From the NCBI GenBank assembly GCA_045542075.1, contig JAZQKI010000042.1, forward strand, positions 19,114-83,113: a stretch of 64,000 nt of DNA. The letters are read 5' to 3'. Of this stretch, positions 51,849-64,000 are shown piece by piece. The notes under the pieces were generated by a model. The model made no database searches. It was not told the DNA's origin and saw only the letters and a list, made by a program, of their open reading frames with translations. The stretch's first letter is position 1. Each line of letters starts with the position of its first letter. The DNA comes from Eubacteriales bacterium (GTDB lineage: Bacteria; Bacillota; Clostridia; Oscillospirales; CAG-272). Made by a program: the position numbers and the translations under genes.

Positions 51849-53069
51849 TTATTGCTCTCCCTTTATCTTCTTCCAATATTCCTCTGCCGCGCGCTCGGTC
51901 TTATTTTCTCCGTAGCGGTAGTATTTTTTACCCTTTATATCACTTGGCAGATACTGCTGCTTGACATAATGATTGGGGTAATCGTGAGGGTATTTATAGC
52001 CCTTGAAAAGCGGACTTTGGAGATGAATAGGAGGCTCAAGTCCAAGCCCTGCCTTGATATCCTCGTCTGCCGCCGCAAGCGCCATATATGCCGAGTTAGA
52101 TTTGGGCGCGGTCGCGAGCATCAAAGCTGCGTGAATCAGCGGAAGTCTTGCCTCAGGCATACCAAGCTCGCGCGCAGAGTCACAGCAAGCCTTGACTATT
52201 GCGGGGGCTATGGGATACGCGAGCCCTATATCCTCGCTGGCTATGACCTGAAGTCTTCGACACAAAGATATTATATCTCCCTGCTCAAGCATTTTCGCAA
52301 CGTAAAACGCCGTCGCATCGGGGTCAGAGCCACGGATGGACTTTTGCAGACATCCAAGCATATCGTAGTGGGTATCGTCATTGAAATTGCCCACACCCGC
52401 CGAAAACTGACTTGCGGAGTCTACCGTAATTATATCGTCCGACGCAAAATACGCGTTCTCAAAGAGTCCTATTGAGCGGCGCACGTCTCCCCTTGCTGCC
52501 TTGGAGATAAACTCAAGCGCATCGGGGGCGACTGATTTTTGCGTGTTGTTCTCAGTATTGAGGTAATCAAGCGCACGCAGGAGCATTTTTTGTATTTCGG
52601 TATGCTCGACGGGCTTGAACTCAAAGAGTGACGAGCGGGATATGACCGCGTTATATACGTAAAAATGCGGATTTTCGGTGGTGGACGCGATAAGCGTGAC
52701 GCGGCCGTCCTCGATATATTCAAGGAGTGCCTGCTGCTGCTTGCGGTTAAAATACTGTATCTCGTCTATGTAAAGAAGTATTCCCGACGCGCCAAAGAGG
52801 TTTGATGAGGAATTAAGCACCTCTTTTACGTCCGAGAGGCTTGCGCTGGTCGCGTTAAAACGATGGAACGACATTCCCGACATCTTCGCGATTACTCCCG
52901 CGGCGGTGGTCTTTCCCGTGCCCGGAGGGCCGTAGAATATCATATTGGTTATTCTTCCGCCCGAGAGCATTCTTCGGATTATTCCTTTTTCACCGAAAAG
53001 GTGGGACTGACCCACTATTTCGTCCATATTCTGCGGTCTTAATATATCCGCAAGCTGTGCGTTTCTCAT
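51849..53069 (-). CDS. rarA: Replication-associated recombination protein A (AAA+)
   Basis: 406 aa (LRPQNMDEIVGQ, Walker A GPPGTGKTT, Walker B LYIDEIQYFN), with a MgsA C-terminal domain. Confidence 0.92.
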   Translation of the reverse strand: MRNAQLADILRPQNMDEIVGQSHLFGEKGIIRRMLSGGRITNMIFYGPPGTGKTTAAGVIAKMSGMSFHRFNATSASLSDVKEVLNSSSNLFGASGILLYIDEIQYFNRKQQQALLEYIEDGRVTLIASTTENPHFYVYNAVISRSSLFEFKPVEHTEIQKMLLRALDYLNTENNTQKSVAPDALEFISKAARGDVRRSIGLFENAYFASDDIITVDSASQFSAGVGNFNDDTHYDMLGCLQKSIRGSDPDATAFYVAKMLEQGDIISLCRRLQVIASEDIGLAYPIAPAIVKACCDSARELGMPEARLPLIHAALMLATAPKSNSAYMALAAADEDIKAGLGLEPPIHLQSPLFKGYKYPHDYPNHYVKQQYLPSDIKGKKYYRYGENKTERAAEEYWKKIKGEQ

Positions 53070-53082
53070 TTATTTCTCCAAT

Positions 53083-54012
53083 TCAGTCACAAAACATATC
53101 TGTTGAGAGGTATCGCTCGCCCGTATCGGGAAGCAGTACCACTATTTTTTTGCCTTTATTCTCTTGCCTTTGCGCCAATCTTTTTGCAGCAGAAAGCGCC
53201 GCGCCCGAGGATATTCCTACAAGTATTCCCTCCGTGCGCGCCAGGCTTCTGCCCTCGGTGTATGCCTCGTCCTCGCTCACGGTAATTATCTCGTCGTAAA
53301 CACTCGTATCAAGAGCCTTGGGGATAAATCCCGCGCCGATGCCCTGAAGTCCGTGCGCACCCGCAATTTTCTTTGTAAGATAAGGGGATTTTGAGGGTTC
53401 AACACCCACTATTCTTATATTCGGATTTTTCTCTTTGAGGTATTTTCCTATGCCGCTTATAGTGCCGCCCGTACCGATACCACAGACGAAAATATCAAGG
53501 TCACCGTTTGTATCCTGCCAGATTTCAACACCCGTAGTTTCGTAGTGCGCTCGGGGATTGTCGGTGTTTTCAAACTGCCCCATTACTATGCTGCCGTATA
53601 TTTCCACGGCGAGCTGATTTGCTTTGTCAATCGCGCCTGCCATACCCAAAGCGCCGTCAGTCAGTACCAGCTCCGCGCCGTACGCCTTCATAAGAAGCTG
53701 TCTTTCTATTGACATATTATCGGGCATAACTATTATAACTCTGTATCCGCGAGATACACCGAGAGCCGCAAGTCCAATTCCCGTGTTTCCCGAGGTGGGC
53801 TCAATTATTGTCGAGCCGACTTTCAGTCTGCCGTCGCGCTCCGCTCCGTCTATCATATAAAGCGCCGCTCTGTCCTTGACTGAGCCCGCGGGATTGAGGC
53901 ACTCAAGCTTTGCATATAACGTCGCGCCAAGGGAATTTTTGTTGCAATAATTTGCAATCTCAAGCAGCGGAGTGTTCCCCACAAGCTCGGACACCGACTT
54001 ATAAATCGCCAT
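53083..54012 (-). CDS. cysK: Cysteine synthase A (O-acetylserine sulfhydrylase)
   Basis: MAIYKSVSELVGNTPLLEI, PLP-lysine region NPAGSVKDR, TSGNTGIGLA. Confidence 0.92.
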   Translation of the reverse strand: MAIYKSVSELVGNTPLLEIANYCNKNSLGATLYAKLECLNPAGSVKDRAALYMIDGAERDGRLKVGSTIIEPTSGNTGIGLAALGVSRGYRVIIVMPDNMSIERQLLMKAYGAELVLTDGALGMAGAIDKANQLAVEIYGSIVMGQFENTDNPRAHYETTGVEIWQDTNGDLDIFVCGIGTGGTISGIGKYLKEKNPNIRIVGVEPSKSPYLTKKIAGAHGLQGIGAGFIPKALDTSVYDEIITVSEDEAYTEGRSLARTEGILVGISSGAALSAAKRLAQRQENKGKKIVVLLPDTGERYLSTDMFCD

Positions 54013-54161
54013 ACCGCACCTCCAAAAATTACTGATATTATTATACCACACGCAAATTATACTGTCAACACAAATTTGTTTAATAGCGTCTGCGCCTATT
54101 GACTGTAAAATTTTTTTGTGATATAATTACTATGTATAATTATGAGAAAGTGAGAGTTTTT

Positions 54162-54971
54162 ATGTCACAAAGCGCAATAAAGCGCACGCATCTTATCTAC
54201 GGGATATGCTTGTCCGTAGTTATAGTGATCACGGCGCTAAGTATAATATTATCGTGCTATGCCATATACGGTGGCGGAGACGGAGAGTTTTCACGTCAGA
54301 TCGTAGCGGAGCAGTTTTCAAAAATTGCCGCTCTTGTTTATTTCTGCCTTGCGGGTATTGTCGGCGGTGTTATCCTGTCTATCTGCCTCCCTGTCATAAA
54401 GGAGTCGGCCGCTAAGGAGAATATCAAAAGCCTTAAGGCGCATCCGAATTATTTTATGACTCGCGAGAGACTTGCGCAGAAGGTATCTCTTGACAGCTGT
54501 GAGCCTATGCTTGCTAAAAAAATAAAAAACGAGCGTGTCAAGAGAGTAATATATGCCTGCGCTTGCTCGGTCCTTTGCGTAGCTTGCGCTGTTCCTTTGC
54601 TGCTTGAGATCTGCAATCCCGCAAATTACGACAAATATCTTATAAATCAAAGCATTATTCCTGCGGTGGTTCTCACTCTCATCTGGTGCTTGTGCGCTTT
54701 GATATTCTGTCTTGGACTAAGTATCATAACCCGTATAAGTCAAAAAGCTGAAATAGCTTATCTTAAGGAGGCAATATCCCTTGGGGCATCCGCTCCCAAG
54801 AAGGTGGATACCGCCAAGGCAAAAAAAGAGACCATTGTTTTGTGGTGCGTGCGAGGTGTTATTCTTGCGTTTGCGATAGTATTTGCTATTGTGGGTATTG
54901 TCAACGGCGGAATGGCTGACGTTCTTGGAAAGGCTATAAGACTCTGTACAGAGTGCATAGGATTGGGGTGA
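54162..54971 (+). CDS. Five-TM membrane protein ending in a CxxC motif (…LCTECIGLG*)
   Basis: The stop lies 4 nt before the next start. It is Cys-rich within its TM helices. The C-terminal CTEC motif resembles small CXXC proteins I recall (unverified) as partners of 4Fe-4S membrane proteins in Clostridia. The start is ambiguous (54099 or 54162). Confidence 0.6.
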   Translation: MSQSAIKRTHLIYGICLSVVIVITALSIILSCYAIYGGGDGEFSRQIVAEQFSKIAALVYFCLAGIVGGVILSICLPVIKESAAKENIKSLKAHPNYFMTRERLAQKVSLDSCEPMLAKKIKNERVKRVIYACACSVLCVACAVPLLLEICNPANYDKYLINQSIIPAVVLTLIWCLCALIFCLGLSIITRISQKAEIAYLKEAISLGASAPKKVDTAKAKKETIVLWCVRGVILAFAIVFAIVGIVNGGMADVLGKAIRLCTECIGLG

Positions 54972-54975
54972 TATT

Positions 54976-56853
54976 ATGGGCAAGATAAAAAATTGGTTTA
55001 TAGCTCACAAGCCCTCAAAGCGTAGAATAATTCAGCTCTACGCGGCACTTCTTTTCAATGCTAATATAAAGGGCTTTATCAAGGGAAGCATTTACACGGG
55101 ACCGCTGAAGAACGTCTGCACTCCCGGTCTTAACTGTTATTCCTGCCCGGGTGCTTCGGGAGCCTGTCCTCTTGGCGCGCTTCAGAATTCACTTGCAAGC
55201 TCAAATAAGCGACTTCCCTATTATATGTTTGGAATCATACTGCTTTACGGTATAATTTTCGGCAGGTGGATATGCTCGTTTTTGTGTCCTTTCGGACTTA
55301 TTCAGGAGCTTTTACATAAGATCAAGACTCCCAAGCTCAAGAAAAACCGCTTTACAAGAGTTCTCTCATACTTAAAATACGTCATACTCGTTGTGTTCGT
55401 ATTCATATTCCCGCTTATGTATATGCTCAAGAGCGTTCCTCTACCCGGATTTTGCAAGTATATTTGTCCTGCGGGAACACTTGAGGGCGCGATGGGCTTG
55501 CTTGCGAACAAGGTAAATTCAAGCTGGTTCTCAATGCTTGGTCCTCTGTTTACCTGGAAATTCATTTTACTTGTAAGCTTTGTGACCGGAGCGATATTTA
55601 TTTTCAGATTTTTCTGCCGTTTCTTCTGTCCTCTCGGAGCGATATACGGATTGTTCAACAAAATATCATTCTTTGGCGTAAAGCTTGATAAGTCCAAGTG
55701 TACAAGCTGTAACATCTGCGTAAGTAAGTGTAAGATGGATATTCACCACGTTGGCGACCAGGAATGTATAAGCTGCGGCGAGTGTATTGACTCCTGCCCT
55801 ACGGGAGCGATCTCCTGGAAGGGCTCAAAGATAATCCTTCACGCAAACGAAATTGATATAGACGAGAATACAACTCCCATCGGTACTCCCGAGCGCGAGG
55901 CTCTCGTGGCGAAAAAGAAAGCGAAGATCGATAAACGGAATAAGATCATTAAGATCAGTGTTATTGTTGCTATGGCGGCGCTTCTTATCGGAGCTCTTCT
56001 CCACTACAACGTATTCTACGACGACGGAAGCAAAACAACTCCTCCCGTAGAAAATCCCACAGAAACACCAACAGAGCCTATAATCCCCGAAACTCACGGC
56101 CTTGATATGACGCTTGATACTACAACAAACACATATATTGTGACAGGCATCGGTGACGTCACAGACACGGAGATAGCAATTCCCTCCGAATATGAGGGTG
56201 TTGCAGTCACAGGTATAGGCGCGGAGGCATTCAAGGATTGCACAACGCTTACTGCCGTCACCATTCCCGAGAGCATTACGTTTATTGGCGAAAATGCTTT
56301 TAGTGGTTGCGATAATATTGTTATCAACTGCAGAATACTCAAGGCTGACAAGCCTTCGGGTTGGGCTGAAAACTGGTGCTCAGATAAAGCAACTGTGACA
56401 TGGCTGCTTCCCCCCGTCGGAAATGCGGTCGGCAGTCTTTGTCCCACCATGACGCTTGACACGTACTCGGGCGGAACATTCAGCATCGAGCAGACTAAAG
56501 GCAAGATCACCGTACTTAATTTCTGGGGTACCTGGTGTACTCCCTGCGTTCAGGAGCTTCCTCATTTTAATGAGATAGCAAATGAATATAAGGACAGCGT
56601 TGCAGTCGCTGTAATACATTCCAATCTTGACGTTGAGACGGGCGGAGATTATATAAACGAGACATTCCCGTCAACAAATATGATAGTTCCTCACGATACT
56701 CAGAATGACGATTATTACATCACCCTGGGCGGAACGATATCCTACCCCATGACAGTTATAATTGACGAGGACGGAATTATAATTTTCTCCAAGGTTGGAA
56801 GTGTGACCTATAATGAACTTAAGAGCGTTATTGACTCCGCTCTTTCAGACTGA
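54976..56853 (+). CDS. Fusion protein: NapH/CcoG-like polyferredoxin membrane domain, TM anchor, PT linker, BspA-type LRR, and a TlpA/ResA-like thioredoxin domain
   Basis: Five CPxG motifs in or near TM helices (CPGASGACPLG, CPFG, CPAG, CPLG). Two ferredoxin clusters (CTSCNICVSKC, CISCGECIDSCP). Late TM IIKISVIVAMAALLIGALL and linker PVENPTETPTEP. LRR segment IAIPSEYEGVAVTGIGAEAFKDCTTLTAVTIPESITFIGENAFSGC. Thioredoxin fold VLNFWGTWCTPCVQELP (WCTPC at 56533-56547). Confidence 0.8.
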   Translation: MGKIKNWFIAHKPSKRRIIQLYAALLFNANIKGFIKGSIYTGPLKNVCTPGLNCYSCPGASGACPLGALQNSLASSNKRLPYYMFGIILLYGIIFGRWICSFLCPFGLIQELLHKIKTPKLKKNRFTRVLSYLKYVILVVFVFIFPLMYMLKSVPLPGFCKYICPAGTLEGAMGLLANKVNSSWFSMLGPLFTWKFILLVSFVTGAIFIFRFFCRFFCPLGAIYGLFNKISFFGVKLDKSKCTSCNICVSKCKMDIHHVGDQECISCGECIDSCPTGAISWKGSKIILHANEIDIDENTTPIGTPEREALVAKKKAKIDKRNKIIKISVIVAMAALLIGALLHYNVFYDDGSKTTPPVENPTETPTEPIIPETHGLDMTLDTTTNTYIVTGIGDVTDTEIAIPSEYEGVAVTGIGAEAFKDCTTLTAVTIPESITFIGENAFSGCDNIVINCRILKADKPSGWAENWCSDKATVTWLLPPVGNAVGSLCPTMTLDTYSGGTFSIEQTKGKITVLNFWGTWCTPCVQELPHFNEIANEYKDSVAVAVIHSNLDVETGGDYINETFPSTNMIVPHDTQNDDYYITLGGTISYPMTVIIDEDGIIIFSKVGSVTYNELKSVIDSALSD

Positions 56854-56854
56854 T

Positions 56855-56893
56855 AAAAAACCCTTGTGTTCGATTGAACACAAGGGCTTTTTA
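56855..56893. terminator. Bidirectional terminator between convergent genes
   Basis: 11-bp stem cccttgtgttc/gaacacaaggg with loop gatt, flanked by A6 and T5 runs. Confidence 0.75.
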
Positions 56894-56894
56894 T

Positions 56895-59800
56895 TTATGC
56901 TACTGTGGGTGTGAGGGTTATCTCTCCACCCGAATTGTTTATGATCGCAAAATAGTTGGGCTCGGTGTACTCTATCGCTCCCGGCTGGGACGCGAATTTA
57001 ATTTTAATAACACCGCTTGCATTTGCACTATAGGTCTGACCGTTGTATATGACTGTCACGCCCTTTGCATTGTTGATAGTCATAGTCATTCCTGCGGAAC
57101 GGGGATACGAACAATATATTGTCGCTCCCGACGCTACGGTGACCGATCCTCCCTCAAGAGGGACATTATAGGGATGGTCCTCGTCTCTGCCGTCATAAAC
57201 AAAATCCGCCGCATTCGCTATCTCTATTGTACATTCAAAGCCGTACAGTCCCGATTCCTCTCCGACAAGGAACGCTTCATCATTGATAAAGCCCTCGGGA
57301 AGATTTTTTATTCTTATAGTAACCGTGGAGGATACCTTGGTTATCAGTCCAACAAAGCCTTTGCTGTTCGTTGTCTTTACTGCAAAGGGCTCTTCAGCCT
57401 CTGAGGAAGCATAGAACTCTATGGTAACACCCGCCAAGGGCTTTCTGTTTGAGGCGTCTACAAACGTGAGCTTGAACGCGCTTTCAGGCTTAATATATCC
57501 GCAAACTGTGCATATGTAGCTCGCATTATACTCATGTCCGAGCGCGGGTACTACCTCATATCCGCAGGCGGTACATGTCTGAGCCGTTGTACAGGTCGCC
57601 TCCTGAGCTCCGGGTGTGTGGGGCTTGAATTCCTCAAGGACTTCATAGCACACAATACACATTTTTCTGTACGCGCAGCTGGACTCCTCACGATTGGGGG
57701 TGTGTCCTGTGGCAGCTGCGATAACTGTATTACATACCGTGCATATCTGATCCTCGGTACAAGTGGGTGTTTTCTTATCAGGCGCGTGCTTTCCTGTCGC
57801 GGCTACAAGCACTTCCTTGCATACGGTACATATCTGATCATCAATACACGTTGCCGCGGGACCGGGTGTATGTTTTGCGGCTACAAGCACTTCCTTACAT
57901 ACTGTACAAATCTGATCTGTGGTACAGGTTGCGGCATCGCCCGGGGTATGTCCCAGAGCGGCTACAATAACTGCTTTACATACCGTACACTTCTGTGCCT
58001 CGGTACAAGTCGCCTCGTCGCCGGGTGTGTGGGGCTTCTTTTCGACTGCTCTGCTCTGAGTCACCGCGCCGCAGTCTGCGCATATAAGACCCTCTGTTCC
58101 CTCTTCAGCGCAGGTCGATTCCTTTGTAACCTTCCATTCAACCGTCTCGTGACTGCATCCAAATCCGCATGTACACCAGCCGTTACTGTCAAGGCTGTGT
58201 GCCTCGGGCTGACTTGTGACATCGGGGCATTTTGTGCAGATCTGCCAGTGAGAGTTCTCATCATACTGATACGCATCCGACCAATCATGACCAAGAGCGT
58301 CTATTGTTTCCTGCTCCTTTATAATGGTGCCGCAGACTGAGCATTTCTCTCCGTCCGTAAGACCCGTATTTACACAATCGGGTGCTTTACCCACTACTGT
58401 TTCGGGAGTATGAGGCAGAGCTTCAAGTGTCTCCTGCGCTACTATGATCTCTCCGCAAACCGAGCATTTGATGCCCGAGGTAAGTCCTGTATTTGAACAG
58501 GTTGCTTGAACTGCGGGTATTTCTTCCTCCGTGTGAGTCGTATATCTTTCACTTCCACACTTATTACAGATAGCGGCACACTCGTTATCATACGTATGTT
58601 CACAGGTAAATCTGTCGGGAAGTGTTGTGATCTCGGTGTCAAAGCTTGCCGTAAAGCTTACGGGCTTTGTTGCATTGTCAAACAAATTCAAGGTTTCTAT
58701 ATAAACGTCAACCTTATCCCCCGCTGACAAAAATACATACGGAAGCGGATTGTATTGGTCATCCTGTACCATTATTCCGTTTACATGTATAATTATTGCC
58801 GCATCCAGGCTGTCTATCCAGAAAAATCCGCTTTCGGACGCGTCAAAGACGTAGCAATATCTGCTTATTCCGGGGTCCGCAAGCGACGTTCCGATAATAA
58901 ATTCGGGAGTTACTGTTTCCTCTCCAAGTGATACCTCAAAGGGATTTGATTCAGATCCGAGGACGTCATTTGCGTCAATTATTGAAAGCTTTATGCTGAC
59001 GTTTGAACTGCCTGAATTTACAATTGCAAAATCGTTGGGAATTGAGTAATAAATATCAACGGGATTTCCGTTTTCATCAAGCTGGGCATCAAACTGTACG
59101 GTTATTTCTCCGCTATCGGACAAATATTCAACGCCGTTATAAATAACCTTAAGAGTTCCCGTTAAATCAGTAATTTTCAAAACAAAGCCGGGCGTTCTGG
59201 GCGCTCTGCAATAAAGAGTTTTATGAGCCTCGACTGTGATGACGTCTCTGTTCTGAACTATAAGGGGAGTTTCTGCTCTTGAGCCGTTTGCCTCGTAGTC
59301 AGCGGGATCAGCGATCGTAATCGTTATTTCATGCTGATTACTGTCAAGCAAATACGAATCGTTATTAGGATATTTTGCGGGAAGCCCTGAAAGGACCACG
59401 GTATATGACCTCTCCGCCGCCCAAACGGACGCAACACCGTCAGCATCCGTCACACCTGTATTTACAAGATTTCCCGACGAGGTATAAAACTCAACCGTAA
59501 CTCCTACGATCGCCTGCTCTGTGAACTGGTCAAGAATAGTTATTTTATATTCAACTGCCACCTCAACGGTAAATTCAACCTTGGTTTCATTCTCAAAGGC
59601 AAGCTCTTCGTCCTCAAAAACGTATCCCTCTGCCTCTACTATCCTTGCGGTGTAGCCGTCCGATTCTTCAAGCTCTGCTGTAAACTTGCCCTTGGAATTA
59701 GTATTTCCCGACGCTACGCAGGTCTCACCCTGATATATTTCAACCACAGCGCCTGACACCTTATTGCCGTCAAAATCCTCAACCGTGACAGTATACGTCA

Positions 59801-60026
59801 CCTTTGTCACGGGCGGTTCAGTGGGCTTTTCGGTAGGATTCTCTGTAGGAGTTTCCGTGGGAGTTTCCGTAGGTGCTCCGCTTGGCGCCTCGGTGGGAGT
59901 GCTATCTGTGTTCTCCGTGGGTGTTTTTGTGGGTGTTTCATTTCTGTCACATGATACTGCGAAGATCAGGGTTGCAAGTGCAATACAGACACACAGTATC
60001 AGCGATATTATTCTTTTCAAATTCAT
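56895..60026 (-). CDS. Giant surface lipoprotein: PT linker, Ig-like domains, PPC-like beta-sandwiches and about 10 Cys3-His repeats
   Basis: Lipobox FAVSC and a TPTE linker. The N-terminal domain is paralogous to those at 38204 and 60153 (YTVTVEDFDGNKVSGAVVEIYQGETC...). The central array includes HTPGDEATCTEAQKCTVCKAVIVAALGHTPGDAATCTTDQICTVCKEVLVAAKHTPGPAATCIDDQICTVC... Confidence 0.8.
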   Translation of the reverse strand: MNLKRIISLILCVCIALATLIFAVSCDRNETPTKTPTENTDSTPTEAPSGAPTETPTETPTENPTEKPTEPPVTKVTYTVTVEDFDGNKVSGAVVEIYQGETCVASGNTNSKGKFTAELEESDGYTARIVEAEGYVFEDEELAFENETKVEFTVEVAVEYKITILDQFTEQAIVGVTVEFYTSSGNLVNTGVTDADGVASVWAAERSYTVVLSGLPAKYPNNDSYLLDSNQHEITITIADPADYEANGSRAETPLIVQNRDVITVEAHKTLYCRAPRTPGFVLKITDLTGTLKVIYNGVEYLSDSGEITVQFDAQLDENGNPVDIYYSIPNDFAIVNSGSSNVSIKLSIIDANDVLGSESNPFEVSLGEETVTPEFIIGTSLADPGISRYCYVFDASESGFFWIDSLDAAIIIHVNGIMVQDDQYNPLPYVFLSAGDKVDVYIETLNLFDNATKPVSFTASFDTEITTLPDRFTCEHTYDNECAAICNKCGSERYTTHTEEEIPAVQATCSNTGLTSGIKCSVCGEIIVAQETLEALPHTPETVVGKAPDCVNTGLTDGEKCSVCGTIIKEQETIDALGHDWSDAYQYDENSHWQICTKCPDVTSQPEAHSLDSNGWCTCGFGCSHETVEWKVTKESTCAEEGTEGLICADCGAVTQSRAVEKKPHTPGDEATCTEAQKCTVCKAVIVAALGHTPGDAATCTTDQICTVCKEVLVAAKHTPGPAATCIDDQICTVCKEVLVAATGKHAPDKKTPTCTEDQICTVCNTVIAAATGHTPNREESSCAYRKMCIVCYEVLEEFKPHTPGAQEATCTTAQTCTACGYEVVPALGHEYNASYICTVCGYIKPESAFKLTFVDASNRKPLAGVTIEFYASSEAEEPFAVKTTNSKGFVGLITKVSSTVTIRIKNLPEGFINDEAFLVGEESGLYGFECTIEIANAADFVYDGRDEDHPYNVPLEGGSVTVASGATIYCSYPRSAGMTMTINNAKGVTVIYNGQTYSANASGVIKIKFASQPGAIEYTEPNYFAIINNSGGEITLTPTVA
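57490..58615 (-). repeat. Coding array of Cys3-His repeat units (long form C-x9-C-x2-CG; short form TC-x5-C-x2-C; each followed by GH/PH)
   Basis: About 10 units are visible in the translation. Near-identical 41-mers at 57799-57839 and 57877-57917 (78-bp period) show recent unit duplication. Confidence 0.7.
59811..59936 (-). repeat. PT(E) linker-coding short tandem repeat
   Basis: Encodes TPTKTPTENTDSTPTEAPSGAPTETPTETPTENPTEKPTEPP. Confidence 0.8.
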
Positions 60027-60152: not shown

Positions 60153-61829
60153 TTATTCTGCGTATTCGTAAGAATACGTGACTTCAAGCTCACCCTCAAG
60201 GCTTTCGCTTGCATTTATGGTAAAGCTCTTATCCTGTGTGACATTGATGACTATCTTTCCGTTCTCGTCAGGGGTATAGGTCTCTCCGCCATAAGTCACG
60301 GTTATTCCCTCGCCCGCATTTACGGTAAGAGTCACGTTTACTGCTTCCTTTTCATTGATCTTGAAGTAAACCGTATCAGCCGCTCCGACAAGTGAGGTCG
60401 AGCCCTCGGGGTTTATCTTAAGCGCGCCGTCCGCATTTGTGCCTGTGTCCTTTACCTCGACCGTGCAAGCGGCAAAGAGCCAAGCATTCTTCACGGGAGG
60501 CTTTTCAACCCCGTATATATCATACAGGTTGTTTTCGGATTCGTAATTCCACCAGCCTGCATGCTCACCGTGCTGCTTAATGATATACTCAAGCATCTCG
60601 TCAAGAGGATATATTCCCGATGCGTCCGCAGCCTCCGCATATTTCTCAATTATCTCGTTATAGCTTTCCTTTTTCAAGGGATTGCCGTCCTCATCAGAGA
60701 AATAACGGCACATTCTTCCTGTCTCGATTATGGTTGCAAAAGACGCCATATTGGGCTTTTGTAATCCGCTTTCCTCATCGGTATAGAAGCCAAAGTAATC
60801 TACGTTTGCAAAAATACGCACGTAAATTATAGGTCCGTTTGCGTCTCCAAGGTGATAAAATCCGTCATCACCGAGAACCAACGTAAGATCCTCATCCATA
60901 AGGTCAAGATTGTTGAGAGTCACAGTCTTATTCTGATACGTGAGACGGTGCTCCGCAAGCTCTCCGTTAAGGCTGGGTATTTCCCATGCAATATCCGCAA
61001 ACGTAAGGGGCATATCCGCAACTCTTTCAATAACCAGCACTGCGTCCTTTGCGGATCCGTCCGTGGTGAGTCCTATAACGCACACAACACTGCTATCGGC
61101 ACCTATACTTGACTTATGTATGGGATACTCGACAGTATTGTCGACGACGTCAAGAAGCGAGTTAGGAAATACTGTCAGCACGCTTCCGCCGTAATATCCG
61201 ACCGTGACCTCCTTATCGGAGATAACGCTGATCTTATATATTCCGTCTCTCTGGGGCTTGAAGATAAAGAAGGATCTCTCACCCTCGTACTCGCTTGAGG
61301 TAACTCCGCGGAGCTTTACATACGTTGCGCCCTCATTTACGTATCCTGCGCCGTATTCGCTTGCGTAAAAGTCCTTGTTGGTATTTGTAACTCTGCTGTA
61401 AACAGAAATTGTAGCCTGGTTATTTTCTGCTGTAAGGGTGCATTCCTCCTCAAACTCATAGCCGTCCGCAGACGTAATGTCAAAGCTCAGATCATACTCG
61501 CCGGCAACAGCCTCAAAGGACGCTTTGCCCTGTGTCACAACAGCGGCAACCGCACCGTCGGAAAACGTAACTACACCCGAGAAATCTGTCATTGTATTTC
61601 CCTTGTAATCAACAAATTCTACCGAATAAGCTATCTTTTCATCAACCGGGGGCTGTGTTGTAGGCTTCTCTGTGGGAGTCTCCGTGGGCTTTTCGGTAGG
61701 GGCCTCAGTAGGTGTGCTTGTGGGTTGAATTGTGGGAGTTTCATTCTTATCGTCACAAGCGACAAGAGCAATCACGCACGTAAGCATCAGTGCAATTGCA
61801 ATTATACTGAGATATCTTCTTGATTTCAT
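60153..61829 (-). CDS. Surface lipoprotein paralogue (PT linker, Ig-like domain, PPC-like domains, one DG-x-YH module)
   Basis: Lipobox ALVAC and a TPTE linker. N-terminal domain YSVEFVDYKGNTMTDFSGVV... Module LVLGDDGFYHLGDANGPIIYV...LDEMLEYIIKQHG...NAWLFAC is shared with the next gene. Confidence 0.75.
   Translation of the reverse strand: MKSRRYLSIIAIALMLTCVIALVACDDKNETPTIQPTSTPTEAPTEKPTETPTEKPTTQPPVDEKIAYSVEFVDYKGNTMTDFSGVVTFSDGAVAAVVTQGKASFEAVAGEYDLSFDITSADGYEFEEECTLTAENNQATISVYSRVTNTNKDFYASEYGAGYVNEGATYVKLRGVTSSEYEGERSFFIFKPQRDGIYKISVISDKEVTVGYYGGSVLTVFPNSLLDVVDNTVEYPIHKSSIGADSSVVCVIGLTTDGSAKDAVLVIERVADMPLTFADIAWEIPSLNGELAEHRLTYQNKTVTLNNLDLMDEDLTLVLGDDGFYHLGDANGPIIYVRIFANVDYFGFYTDEESGLQKPNMASFATIIETGRMCRYFSDEDGNPLKKESYNEIIEKYAEAADASGIYPLDEMLEYIIKQHGEHAGWWNYESENNLYDIYGVEKPPVKNAWLFAACTVEVKDTGTNADGALKINPEGSTSLVGAADTVYFKINEKEAVNVTLTVNAGEGITVTYGGETYTPDENGKIVINVTQDKSFTINASESLEGELEVTYSYEYAE
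61647..61739 (-). repeat. PT(E) linker-coding short tandem repeat
   Basis: Encodes TPTIQPTSTPTEAPTEKPTETPTEKPTTQPP. Confidence 0.8.
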
Positions 61830-61902: not shown

Positions 61903-64000
61903 TTATTCTGCGGCTACGGTAGGTCCATAGTGCTTGTAATAGAAGCAAAGCTTTGTCCAGCTATGCTCAACACCCTCGAGGGAATATCTGTCCATAAACA
62001 TCTGAAGAATTTCTGCAAGCTCCTCGGTCATCTCGATACAACCGTTGAGCTCTTCATTCTCGTTATTGGTAATTACCTGATCAAGATATGCCTGCATTTG
62101 CTCGGTGTAATCACCTGCGCCGTGGTAAATACCGTTTTTTACCTCCTCGATAAGCTCGACTCTTTGAGCGTAGAGGTATTCGCCCCAAGCCTCCTTGAAG
62201 CCCTGAGCCTCATCAATGCCCGCAGCCTCGAATTCCTCAATAAAGCCCTCTATCTCAACATCAAGAGAGGTTTTGTCAAAGTTGAAGCCGTCAAGCTTAA
62301 TCGCATCCTCAATGGAATGGCTGAACAGACCTGTACGCGTCCAGAAATCAGCATAGAGCACAGGGCCCTGCGTGCCGTCCTCGTTCTTTACGTAATACTT
62401 GCCGTCAACGAGCATTACGTCAACACCTGTTGCCTCGGGAGTTGCGCCGTAGTCTATCTCTCCGTCACCGTCATCGGGCATTGTGAAGGGCCCGGGGGAT
62501 GCGTGAGTAAATATGTCGGCAACATCGCCTTCTCTTTCAATTCTGAAGGTAAAGGATCCGGACGCATATATATCATAGTATGCGAGGTCCATATAACAGG
62601 TTTCGCCTGCTTTTATATACACAAGCATGGAAACATTCTTGGTATCCTGCCACATCTTTTCAGCATGCTCGTAGGTATAGATAAGCTCGTGATTTTCATC
62701 AAACAACCAAGCGTCAATAGCATAATCAACGCCGTCCACTATTCCCTCTGCCGTGCTGTACGAGGTAATGCGGTATACGCCCGACTCCTCGGGGGTAAAC
62801 GCATAGAGATAACCTCTTGGCATTACTATCTGGGTATAGGTCACCTCGTTTGCAATATCAAGCTTTGCTTCAAACGCGGAGAAAATCGCAAGTCCCTTTA
62901 TGGGGTCCATCATTTGCTCGCCGTTTGTGCCGTATGCATCATAGTAAACGCACATCTGAAGCCACTCGTTCGGGTTGTCTGCCTCGGTACCGACCGCCTC
63001 GCAAACTATCTCAAGAAGCTCGCGGAGCTCCTCATTTACACTACAATAGCCGTACATTCTGGAGTTTACAGAATAGTTGGAATACTCCTCAAACTGATCA
63101 ACGTAATCAATGCCGTTGAGCTTGATAAGACCGTTATAAGCCATCATCCATACGGACATGGTATTGCTGAATCGGGTGTATCCCATAAGGTTAGCAAGAA
63201 GGATAGGTCCGTCCGCCGTACCTACGTGGTAGTAGCCGTCCTCACCGAGAACAACCTCAACGTAGCTGTTGTAGCCTGAGCCAAGATCATTGAAATCGTT
63301 TGCGGCGTGTCTGAAAATATAGGTCTCCTTGTCTATTTCACTTGCGTCAACGATCCTGAGATCCTTGATATACATAGTATCGTCGCCAACGTCAGAACCG
63401 GAATCCTTTATATAGCAGAGCGCAAGCTCGTACGTGCCGTCTTCAAGAGCTACATAAGGATATACTGTGTCCCAATCGTCTCCGTCGCCCGAAAGCTGAT
63501 ACATATCCTGTCTGTCAACAAGAATATAAAGAATATCTGCTCCAAGCTCGGTAGAAGCCCAGTAATCAAAGGCTATTGCCTGTCCTGCCTTGAGCTCTAC
63601 GTCAGCATAAATTATAGAATACGTGGAATGCTTGAACGCGTTTGAGGTTTTAATGCAAGTCTCTCCGTTCTTTTCGCCGATTATAAAGGGCCAAGCGTAT
63701 TCCGCATCCTCGGGATTAGCCTCTCCGCGGTATGTGACACTTATATCGCCCTTGTTAAGCACCGCGCCTATCTCCTCGGATGAAGGCATTGAAACGTTTG
63801 GCTTGGCAACGGGAGTAAGAATAGAGGGGTCAGATATAAGCTGCTGCTGATAATCATCACCTGTGAAATAATCAAATATTGCCTGGAACTGATGCGCGGA
63901 CATAGCGCCCTCAATAACAAAGCAAATAACTCCATATCTGTCAACAACAATTGACGTGGGCGCGCCCGAGGGATTGAAGTTTGCGATAATTCCCTGGTCA
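61903..64000 (-). CDS. Large exported protein, 5' end outside the window: ResA/TlpA-like domain tail, beta-sandwich, two DG-x-YH modules and a PPC-like domain
   Basis: The frame stays open upstream of the listed Met at 63903 to base 64000 (DQGIIANFNPSGAPTSIVVDRYGVICFVIEGAMSAHQFQAIFDYF). This resembles the C-terminal strands and helix of ResA/TlpA thioredoxin folds. The modules VVLGEDGYYHVGTADGPILLA...NEWLQMCVYY and VMLVDGKYYVKNEDGTQGPVLYA...HSWTKLCFYY are internal repeats. Confidence 0.75.
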   Translation of the reverse strand, partial: DQGIIANFNPSGAPTSIVVDRYGVICFVIEGAMSAHQFQAIFDYFTGDDYQQQLISDPSILTPVAKPNVSMPSSEEIGAVLNKGDISVTYRGEANPEDAEYAWPFIIGEKNGETCIKTSNAFKHSTYSIIYADVELKAGQAIAFDYWASTELGADILYILVDRQDMYQLSGDGDDWDTVYPYVALEDGTYELALCYIKDSGSDVGDDTMYIKDLRIVDASEIDKETYIFRHAANDFNDLGSGYNSYVEVVLGEDGYYHVGTADGPILLANLMGYTRFSNTMSVWMMAYNGLIKLNGIDYVDQFEEYSNYSVNSRMYGYCSVNEELRELLEIVCEAVGTEADNPNEWLQMCVYYDAYGTNGEQMMDPIKGLAIFSAFEAKLDIANEVTYTQIVMPRGYLYAFTPEESGVYRITSYSTAEGIVDGVDYAIDAWLFDENHELIYTYEHAEKMWQDTKNVSMLVYIKAGETCYMDLAYYDIYASGSFTFRIEREGDVADIFTHASPGPFTMPDDGDGEIDYGATPEATGVDVMLVDGKYYVKNEDGTQGPVLYADFWTRTGLFSHSIEDAIKLDGFNFDKTSLDVEIEGFIEEFEAAGIDEAQGFKEAWGEYLYAQRVELIEEVKNGIYHGAGDYTEQMQAYLDQVITNNENEELNGCIEMTEELAEILQMFMDRYSLEGVEHSWTKLCFYYKHYGPTVAAE

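Follow-up and report, generated by a model that had tools for sequence, protein, structure and literature searches.

To our knowledge, all characterised routes by which reductant reaches extracytoplasmic thioredoxin-like proteins are DsbD/CcdA thiol relays that are fed by cytoplasmic thioredoxin. The membrane proteins NapH, MauN, NosR and RdhC (PceC), which share PF12801 and COG0348 ('polyferredoxin'), have a four-helix core with two CX3CP motifs after transmembrane (TM) helices, and NapH, MauN and NosR, but not RdhC, also have a C-terminal cytoplasmic domain with two [4Fe-4S] motifs. In PceC, NosR and many systems that await characterisation the module is joined to an extracytoplasmic domain that binds flavin mononucleotide (FMN), and NapH-like PF12801 modules have already been proposed to be modular conduits through which electrons cross the membrane to redox domains outside the cytosol (PMC8238504; PMC5928378). 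Here we describe a fusion gene in a 64,000-nucleotide (nt) stretch of DNA from an Eubacteriales bacterium (GenBank assembly GCA_045542075.1, contig JAZQKI010000042.1; the whole stretch is called the window below) whose product has the four-helix core, the CX3CP motifs and the domain with two [4Fe-4S] motifs of these proteins, joined to a thioredoxin that is predicted to be exported. We propose, with moderate confidence, that this gene and the one upstream of it encode a two-subunit membrane reductase that carries cytoplasmic reducing equivalents to a surface-tethered thioredoxin.

The 625-amino acid (aa) fusion protein consists, in this order, of a NapH-like polyferredoxin module, a fifth TM helix, a Pro/Thr/Glu linker, a short BspA-type leucine-rich repeat (LRR) and a ResA/TlpA-like thioredoxin (Table 1). 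A preliminary description of this DNA had read the protein in the same way, as a NapH-type N-terminal module with CPxG and two [4Fe-4S] motifs followed by an extra TM helix, a linker, a BspA-type LRR and a thioredoxin with a WCTPC site, and all of these parts were recovered by Pfam, by hydropathy and by the positions of the motifs. Fer4_5 (PF12801) matched in two stretches with 60.3 bits against a gathering threshold of 22, and Fer4 matched with 37.7 bits, which is also above its Pfam gathering score; the di-cluster ferredoxin region (Fer4, Fer4_7 and Fer4_18) covers residues 239-290. LRR_5 (PF13306) matched residues 411-448 with 34.5 bits against 27.7 and covered 37 of 127 model positions, while residues 485-611 matched Redoxin (PF08534; 50.4 bits against 26.6), AhpC-TSA (PF00578; 49.5 bits) and also Thioredoxin. 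The CPxG-type motifs are C64PLG, C100x3C104PFG, C160x3C164PAG and C214x3C218PLG, the first of which closes an additional N-terminal four-cysteine motif, C48-x5-C54-x2-C57P-x5-C64P. The [4Fe-4S] motifs are C242xxCxxCxxxC252 and C264xxCxxCxxxC274P, and the active site of the thioredoxin is WC521TPC524. With a weakly hydrophobic first helix at residues 15-35 the total of TM helices is five. The top NCBIfam matches, NapH/MauN (71 bits) and ResA (69 bits), are both far below their curated cutoffs and thus no named NCBIfam family claims the fusion protein.

A homologue search among 5.8 billion proteins gave 5574 matches at E <= 1e-5. Fer4_5 and a Redoxin-type domain occurred together in all of the best 120 of these matches, which are 494-927 aa long and are named in their sources solely '4Fe-4S binding protein' or 'redoxin family protein'. 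When the fusion protein was aligned with these 120 homologues (121 sequences), the 18 cysteines of the module and both cysteines of the CxxC site were found to be essentially invariant, the lone cysteine exception being one Tyr at C160; one Asn at P275 was the other exception in the motifs. Such a pattern, with E = 0 for close homologues and hardly any variation in the motifs, is far beyond chance, and the conservation of the CPxG and Fe-S cysteines that the preliminary description had counted on was confirmed. The active-site consensus of the family is WCGPC, with Gly at the first variable position in 71 and Pro at the second in 97 of the 121 sequences. C489 (56440..56442), a lone cysteine shortly before the thioredoxin fold, is kept in 110 of them and could be a relay or resolving cysteine. 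Relatives are encoded in at least 594 stretches of species-representative genomes, and the best 80 of these all align through the thioredoxin domain; the carriers among these 80 are gut and rumen Clostridia (Oscillospiraceae, 'Eubacteriales' and Lachnospiraceae) and Acholeplasmatales/Anaeroplasma. The closest genome match among those listed is an uncultured Eubacteriales metagenome-assembled genome (MAG) with 93%, and the isolate Butyrivibrio sp. VCD2006 (Lachnospiraceae) carries the fused form. The fusion recurs in hundreds of genomes and is not an assembly or frameshift artefact.

The LRR is a different case. It is confined to about 15 closest relatives, and P0012, which is 88% identical over the aligned part, does not have it; the core family, with the LRR left out, is about 500 aa in size. 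The LRR part, which matched PDB 4fs7 and TpLRR 6mlx in a PDB sequence search, was modelled by AlphaFold2 (AF2) with a predicted local distance difference test (pLDDT) score of >90. On the sequence comparison it is a lineage-specific accessory and not a general device for the docking of substrates or partners.

The fusion gene is the second gene of a two-gene operon, because there is a promoter upstream, a 4-nt junction between the partner stop codon and the fusion ATG, and a terminator downstream. The promoter covers the TTG start codon at 54099 given for the partner in the list of open reading frames (ORFs) and hence the ATG at 54162 is the real start of the partner. For the tail of the partner NCBIfam NF040920, 'CD1871A family CXXC motif-containing protein', scored 36.3 bits, above its cutoff of 32; positions 2-38 of this 38-position model correspond to residues 254-290 of the TTG-started ORF, that is, to the last 37 residues of the partner. 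All homologues of the partner (n=76) are named 'hypothetical' and have no Pfam match. Their bodies diverge to about 30% identity and their last 22 residues, NGGMxDVLxKAIxxCTECIGLG, are almost invariant, with C262 and C265 as the sole conserved cysteines. The partner has five hydrophobic peaks, and since its two long loops are rich in Lys and Arg (K/R) it is predicted to be N-in and C-out with the CxxC tail on the outer face. AF2 gave a model with a pLDDT of 79, five TM helices and a terminal helix. Foldseek found no structural relative of this model in the PDB, which ruled out that the partner is a CcdA, DsbB or VKOR in hiding.

The linkage of the two genes is nearly complete. A same-strand ORF with the conserved tail lies upstream in 75 of 83 loci, mostly 1-30 nt from the fusion gene, and when the proteins were clustered by BLAST the partner family was found in 83 of 84 loci, the window included. 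The sole locus without the long partner carries a 42-aa mini version, and in L085, another of the loci, a 44-aa mini version precedes a 520-aa fusion and a redoxin gene that stands by itself. The view in the preliminary description that one polypeptide does the whole job is therefore probably wrong. A homology search with the 45-aa tail returned 15 short fragments only, and some of the 43-44-aa entries with the CxxC tail probably represent long partners whose gene was called too short. Three such entries (P0198, P0200 and P0207; 43-44 aa) are named 'thioredoxin' at NCBI, a misnomer for what is one TM helix with a CD1871A-type tail.

Comparison with Escherichia coli NapH showed which features of the membrane module are particular to the family. 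The two are 30% identical, all 12 NapH-type cysteines are aligned, and both CX3CP motifs (after TM2 and TM4) and both [4Fe-4S] motifs are common to them. E. coli NapH has no Cys at positions 48, 54, 57 and 64, and the loop-3 insert that bears C160x3C164P is missing from it as a whole. Thus, the fusion family has six extra invariant cysteines and these are located in two predicted outer loops. R16 and Q20 are invariant, E. coli NapH included, and belong to an RRxxQ motif (55018..55035, residues 15-20) directly before helix 1. This motif recalls a twin-arginine signal-anchor, a resemblance in sequence alone.

The sidedness of the module was deduced from the charges of its loops. Across the family the N-terminus, loop 2 and the segment before TM5 are on the K/R-rich side and loops 1 and 3 are on the opposite side. 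For helix 1, K+R is 3.6 in residues 1-14 and the hydropathy peak across the family is 1.05. Residues 321-345 are the most hydrophobic segment of the protein (Kyte-Doolittle 2.64) and sit inside an AF2 helix at 305-347. Whether this segment spans the membrane had been set beforehand as a check on the preliminary description, and a hydrophobic, TM-like helix was found between the ferredoxin and thioredoxin domains in 121/121 sequences, with 2-9 K/R among the 15 preceding residues, 0-3 K/R after it and a stretch rich in Asp and Glu beyond. The K/R-rich side is therefore predicted to be the cytoplasm and loops 1 and 3 to be on the outer face, in agreement with the published topology of NapH and NosR (PMC5928378). 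From the loop charges and the homology to NapH, the predicted outer face would hold the six family-specific cysteines, the two of the partner and the CxxC of the thioredoxin. An alternative is that the topology is inverted or single-sided, with all domains on one side of the membrane, or that the fusion is an assembly or frameshift artefact; the weak hydrophobicity of helix 1 speaks in its favour. An inversion, however, would expose the K/R-rich loop 2 and pre-TM5 segment outside, would export an Fe-S ferredoxin domain that has no export signal and would keep a BspA-type LRR inside, and the thioredoxin of the sister family described below is a lipoprotein; the same ORF is found in many independent assemblies, which speaks against an artefact. 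We regard this alternative as extremely improbable.

That the module works with an extracytoplasmic thioredoxin is supported by a split sister system. Residues 1-320 were used in a phmmer search against 1.84 billion representatives, which gave 444 clusters at E <= 1e-30. The top ~55 clusters are mostly proteins of 500-820 aa, and the tier below them is made up of stand-alone proteins of 270-310 aa with 40-50% identity. Stand-alone modules (about 290 aa) retain the loop-1 motif, the four CPxG motifs and both Fe-S sites and end just past the ferredoxin domain. Eighty metagenome loci of this kind were sampled (L086-L165; for example, L127:2802-4854). Directly upstream of the stand-alone module there is, in 77 of the 80, a 36-65-aa peptide with one TM helix and the ending …KAIKLC[LM]EC[VI]GIG. 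In 70 of the 80 a lipoprotein is encoded on the same strand, usually directly downstream; it is about 307 aa long and combines a lipobox Cys with a Redoxin/AhpC-TSA/Thioredoxin_8 domain. Many of the 80 loci also have a divergent OmpR-type response regulator and histidine kinase. The RefSeq names of the triad in Peptoclostridium acidaminophilum DSM 3953 are 'CD1871A family CXXC motif-containing protein', '4Fe-4S binding protein' and 'TlpA disulfide reductase family protein'. Seven of ten long family members that were missed by a regular expression still have the Redoxin domain. The window protein is thus the fused version of a three-component system, and by this relation of fusion and fission the module is linked to a thioredoxin outside the cytoplasm. 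Because the sister thioredoxin is a lipoprotein, the placing of the thioredoxin outside and its functional link to the module, both of which the preliminary description had claimed, receive independent support. The region of CD18710 in Clostridioides difficile 630 is listed as a conjugative transposon (PMC12772354) and so the split system may be mobile.

Taken as a whole, then, the preliminary interpretation was supported in its architecture and sidedness and was not supported in the single polypeptide and in docking by the LRR. The partner gene, the six outer-loop cysteines and the split sister system were not part of it.

The sister loci also bear on whether there is an electron path at all. 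The thioredoxin could be reduced by another protein, such as CcdA, and the module could carry out metal reduction, like CcoG, or redox sensing, in which case the fusion would be a matter of co-localisation. CcoG-type relatives of NapH are cupric reductases, thioredoxin folds of the TlpA/Sco type work in copper delivery (PDB 4txo is among the Foldseek matches), and there is a two-component system beside the sister operon. Yet a thioredoxin lipoprotein in 70 of 80 sister loci and a fusion in hundreds of genomes indicate a direct functional partnership, no gene that resembles CcdA or is connected with copper is found repeatedly around the gene pair in the 84 loci, and co-localisation would leave the outer-face cysteines and the CxxC of the partner with no obvious role. 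We consider this explanation unlikely.

The direction in which electrons flow was judged from the thioredoxin domain. Residues 370-625 were modelled with a pLDDT of about 90, and the best PDB matches found by Foldseek are all extracytoplasmic thiol-disulfide reductases, namely, ResA, CcmG, TlpA, StoA, the pneumococcal Etrx1/2, DsbF and the C-terminal domain of DipZ. The Foldseek target TM-score was 0.66-0.89 for the single-domain matches, with 0.8-0.89 to ResA, and 0.37-0.38 for DipZ (5cyy, 2hyx), where it is normalised on a chain of ~330 residues that is about twice as long. A HMMER alignment with ResA, NFWGTWCEPCKKEFPYM, spans NFWGTWC-x-PC-xx-E-x-P and the cis-Pro loop, and makes E527 coincide with the Glu of ResA, while P591 falls in the cis-Pro loop; C521, C524, E527 and P591 do not vary within the family. 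The domain thus has what marks proteins of the TlpA/ResA/CcmG type, that is, a CxxC-bearing thioredoxin fold that has a cis-Pro loop and, at the third position past the CxxC, an acidic residue, and it scored below the cutoffs of the named subfamilies ResA (NF002854; 68.6 bits against 170) and TlpA (NF047696; 41.9 against 230). A peroxiredoxin, as the AhpC-TSA match might be read, was ruled out by the W-CxxC site, which is as in ResA/TlpA, and by the lack of a peroxidatic PxxxTxxC context.

Because the Foldseek matches are reductases, and because of the alignment with ResA, the invariant E527 and P591 and the CGPC/CTPC active site, these data point to a reductant and not to a DsbA-like oxidant. 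Electrons could also flow the other way, so that the exported thioredoxin oxidises secreted proteins and passes electrons inward like DsbB-DsbA or the VKOR-thioredoxin fusions, to which the architecture is formally equal; nearby surface proteins are Cys-rich, as such a role would allow. The consensus WCGPC/WCTPC is, however, typical of reductants and the oxidase-type CPHC was not seen, the nearest structures are all reductases of the ResA/CcmG/TlpA/Etrx kind with the ResA-type Glu after the CxxC invariant, and low-potential [4Fe-4S] clusters would be unlikely electron sinks in strict anaerobes. Reverse flow is, in our judgement, decidedly unlikely.

Starting from the architecture, its conservation, the sidedness given by charge bias, the operon and the fusion/fission relation, we infer a donor, a direction of flow, a crossing chemistry and clients for the two-subunit reductase as follows. 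The two [4Fe-4S] clusters would be loaded from the cytoplasm by a donor of low potential, for which reduced ferredoxin is the most likely candidate, and from the clusters the electrons would pass to the CX3CP cysteines on the cytoplasmic face. They would then cross the membrane to the outer-face cysteines of loop 1, loop 3 and the CxxC of the partner, which could be a dithiol/disulfide relay or the ligands of additional clusters. These cysteines would reduce the CxxC of the tethered thioredoxin, which in turn may reduce disulfides or oxidised cysteines of surface proteins, possibly including the nearby secreted thioredoxin-domain proteins.

Several findings weigh against this mechanism. Helix 1 is only weakly hydrophobic, and the outer placing of loops 1 and 3 was derived from charge bias and homology to NapH. 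The AF2 model is poor in the membrane/Fe-S half (pLDDT 45-70). No gene for ferredoxin, Rnf or an oxidoreductase is consistently linked in the 84 loci. NosR is reported to have about 8 Fe per protein and the role of its CX3CP motifs is left unexplained (PMC5928378). As regards structural comparison, a PDB sequence search with the fusion protein matched the LRR and thioredoxin parts and gave no match for the membrane module, and Foldseek with the full AF2 model gave matches to the thioredoxin domain only.

The donor is also the point at which the kinship with NapH suggests something else. The same outward conduit could be driven by membrane quinol, as has been proposed for NapH, with the cytoplasmic Fe-S clusters in a side or regulatory role. 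NapH is seen as a quinol dehydrogenase subunit and the electrons of NapH-like proteins are said to come 'probably from a quinol in some cases' (PMC8238504; PMC5928378), and the module is, as mentioned above, 30% identical to NapH of E. coli. On the other hand, the hosts are fermentative gut Clostridia and MAGs of Acholeplasmatales/Anaeroplasma. Many such fermentative hosts are probably without quinone synthesis, and from its redox potential menaquinol is a poor reductant for a CxxC of the thioredoxin type. The eight invariant Fe-S cysteines also argue for a central role of the clusters. Quinol as the driving force is therefore quite unlikely and we retain a ferredoxin-type donor in our proposal.

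The surroundings of the operon were examined for clients and associated genes. In about 24 of the 84 loci a large secreted thioredoxin-domain protein, part of which is encoded at the edge of the window, lies no more than 6 kb from the operon. The product in the window is 48% identical over 659 aa to L032:9823-12657 and includes the cis-Pro loop of thioredoxin. Its homologues are secreted lipoproteins with a CarboxypepD_reg-like domain, a ResA-like thioredoxin (NFWYTTCSWCVKEFP) and a ~650-aa domain for which there is no Pfam match; that such a protein is a client is speculation. The 1043-aa surface protein gene convergent with the operon encodes a run of ~30-aa Cys-rich repeats (HTPG..ATCT..Q.CTVC..V) and has orthologues in the closest relatives only. 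This protein may, again speculatively, be a client of the exported thioredoxin. A minority of the 84 loci share thioredoxin-domain proteins and S8 proteases; apart from these and the partner, no neighbour was found to be conserved. The recurrent neighbours were the CxxC partner, surface proteins and thioredoxin-domain proteins, with no nitrate reductase genes among them. Back-to-back near-consensus promoters lie at 54040..54127, one of 12/12 matches (minus strand) for cysteine synthase and one of 11/12 (plus strand) for the operon; the adjacency of cysK is also seen in L001 and is not seen in more distant relatives. L001 also has a 575-aa unannotated gene placed like the 558-aa ORF of the window. 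Antisense ORFs over the fusion gene (for example, 55302..55715 and 56094..56510, minus strand) were discarded as shadows of a sense gene that is conserved in relatives. No RNA element was found by Rfam in 53000..58000. AF2 pLDDT in the linker of the fusion protein is about 43-52 across residues 351-370 and <50 at 350-364.

Table 1. Features of the window and their positions (residue numbers are those of the encoded protein)
Feature	Position	Strand	Remarks
Cysteine synthase gene (PALP)	53083..54051	-	12/12 promoter, minus strand
Sigma-70-type promoter, TTGACT-17-TATAAT with TG extension	54099..54127	+	11/12 matches
Partner gene, 269 aa, five TM helices, C-terminal CxxC tail (NGGMADVLGKAIRLCTECIGLG)	54162..54971	+	NF040920 match, linkage, AF2
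Partner TM5 and conserved tail; C262 (54945..54947), C265 (54954..54956)	54834..54968	+	Predicted outward-facing
Fusion gene	54976..56853	+	ATG start, 625 aa; GGGGTGA Shine-Dalgarno-like sequence overlaps partner stop codon
K/R-rich N-terminus and weakly hydrophobic helix 1 (residues 1-35)	54976..55080	+	RRxxQ motif in common with NapH; AF2 helix 15-35
Loop 1 cysteine motif C48-x5-C54-x2-C57P-x5-C64PLG	55117..55176	+	Predicted outer face; absent from E. coli NapH
TM2, then C100x3C104PFG (Fer4_5 repeat 1, residues 84-117)	55216..55296	+	Cytoplasmic face by NapH homology
TM3, then C160x3C164PAG in loop 3	55348..55476	+	Predicted outer face; entire insert missing in E. coli NapH
TM4, then C214x3C218PLG (Fer4_5 repeat 2)	55540..55638	+	Predicted cytoplasmic face; Pfam, conservation, NapH alignment
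Ferredoxin domain, C242/245/248/252 and C264/267/270/274	55678..55845	+	Predicted cytoplasmic; aligned with NapH
TM5 (residues 321-345)	55936..56010	+	Extra helix putting C-terminal half outside (predicted)
Pro/Thr/Glu-rich linker (residues 346-385)	56011..56130	+	Translation; AF2 pLDDT drop
BspA-type LRR insert (residues about 386-470)	56131..56385	+	LRR_5 match; lineage-specific accessory
ResA/TlpA/CcmG-type thioredoxin domain	56413..56850	+	Active site W-C521-T-P-C524 at 56533..56547
Intrinsic terminator, 11-bp stem then CTTTTTATTT	56861..56886	+	Closes operon
1043-aa predicted surface protein	56895..60026	-	Big_1/CarboxypepD_reg-like domains, convergent with operon
558-aa ORF, no Pfam match	60153..61829	-	Between two surface-protein genes
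Large secreted thioredoxin-domain protein	61903..64000	-	Possible client/associate; runs off window edge, frame open to edge

The system is built from known types of modules, is widespread and is uncharacterised; in the literature searched, which excludes most subscription journals, we found no paper on a NapH-like module with a thioredoxin or on the CD1871A family, and no published function for the fused or the split form. If our proposal is correct, it would be a second and mechanistically distinct solution to the supply of reductant to the cell surface, one that is linked to ferredoxin rather than NADPH and that suits strict fermenters. It would also say concretely what the enigmatic CX3CP motifs do in the NapH/NosR/RdhC superfamily, and it would provide a role for the widespread 'hypothetical' CD1871A family of micro-proteins. 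Given its abundance in rumen and gut Clostridia, the system may matter for the protection or maturation of surface proteins under oxygen or host oxidants. Both forms have cultured carriers, Butyrivibrio sp. VCD2006 for the fused and P. acidaminophilum for the split form, and thus the proposal is directly testable.

How the locus stands among the known systems can be stated as follows. Like NosR and PceC, which are thought to carry electrons across the membrane, the fusion protein has its module joined to an extracytoplasmic redox domain. It differs from NapH/MauN in scoring 71.4 bits against a cutoff of 213.05 for TIGR02163 and 57.3 against 234 for NF007013, and from NosR in scoring 33.7 bits against 1000. 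It has no FMN_bind match, its exported head being a thioredoxin and not the FMN-binding domain of NosR and RdhC, and there are no nap, nos or rdh genes near it. Since family score, gene context and FMN domain all fail, the fusion protein is not NapH, NosR or RdhC by their defining features. What sets it further apart from NapH, MauN, NosR and RdhC are the six added invariant outer-loop cysteines, the fifth, C-terminal TM helix and the obligatory CxxC-tailed partner. With DsbD/CcdA and their ResA/TlpA/CcmG/Etrx partners it would share the job, that is, bringing electrons to an extracytoplasmic thioredoxin of the ResA/TlpA type, and its overall layout is that of DipZ, in which a CcdA-like membrane domain is followed by a TlpA-like domain on the outside. 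The membrane parts are not related, however, as neither the fusion protein nor the partner has a DsbD-family Pfam match (PF02683 for DsbD/CcdA), and the predicted entry on the cytoplasmic side is a pair of Fe-S clusters instead of thiol exchange with thioredoxin.

The coupling of a one-electron Fe-S donor to a two-electron disulfide is known from ferredoxin:thioredoxin reductase (FTR), which achieves it through cysteines beside a [4Fe-4S] cluster. The likeness is conceptual only, because FTR is soluble, is unrelated in sequence and does not cross a membrane. A wider and more tentative idea, which we hold to be possible and still doubtful, is that the CD1871A-type CxxC subunit and the polyferredoxin with four CPxG motifs represent an unrecognised class of transmembrane disulfide reductase. 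This would be a membrane-spanning analogue of FTR, driven by low-potential cytoplasmic Fe-S clusters, with a path via the outer-face cysteines (4 + 2 + 2 Cys as extra Fe-S sites, or a dithiol relay), independent of cytoplasmic thioredoxin and CcdA/DsbD, and it would be the main route of surface reductant in many gut Clostridia and wall-less Bacilli. A further close counterpart of the locus is the CD1871A triad. The tail of the partner is above the NF040920 cutoff and the stand-alone operon, which is common in gut metagenomes, bears the three names given above; in the window, a 269-aa protein with five helices stands in place of the ~45-aa peptide, and the thioredoxin, instead of being a separate lipoprotein, is fused to the module through TM5.

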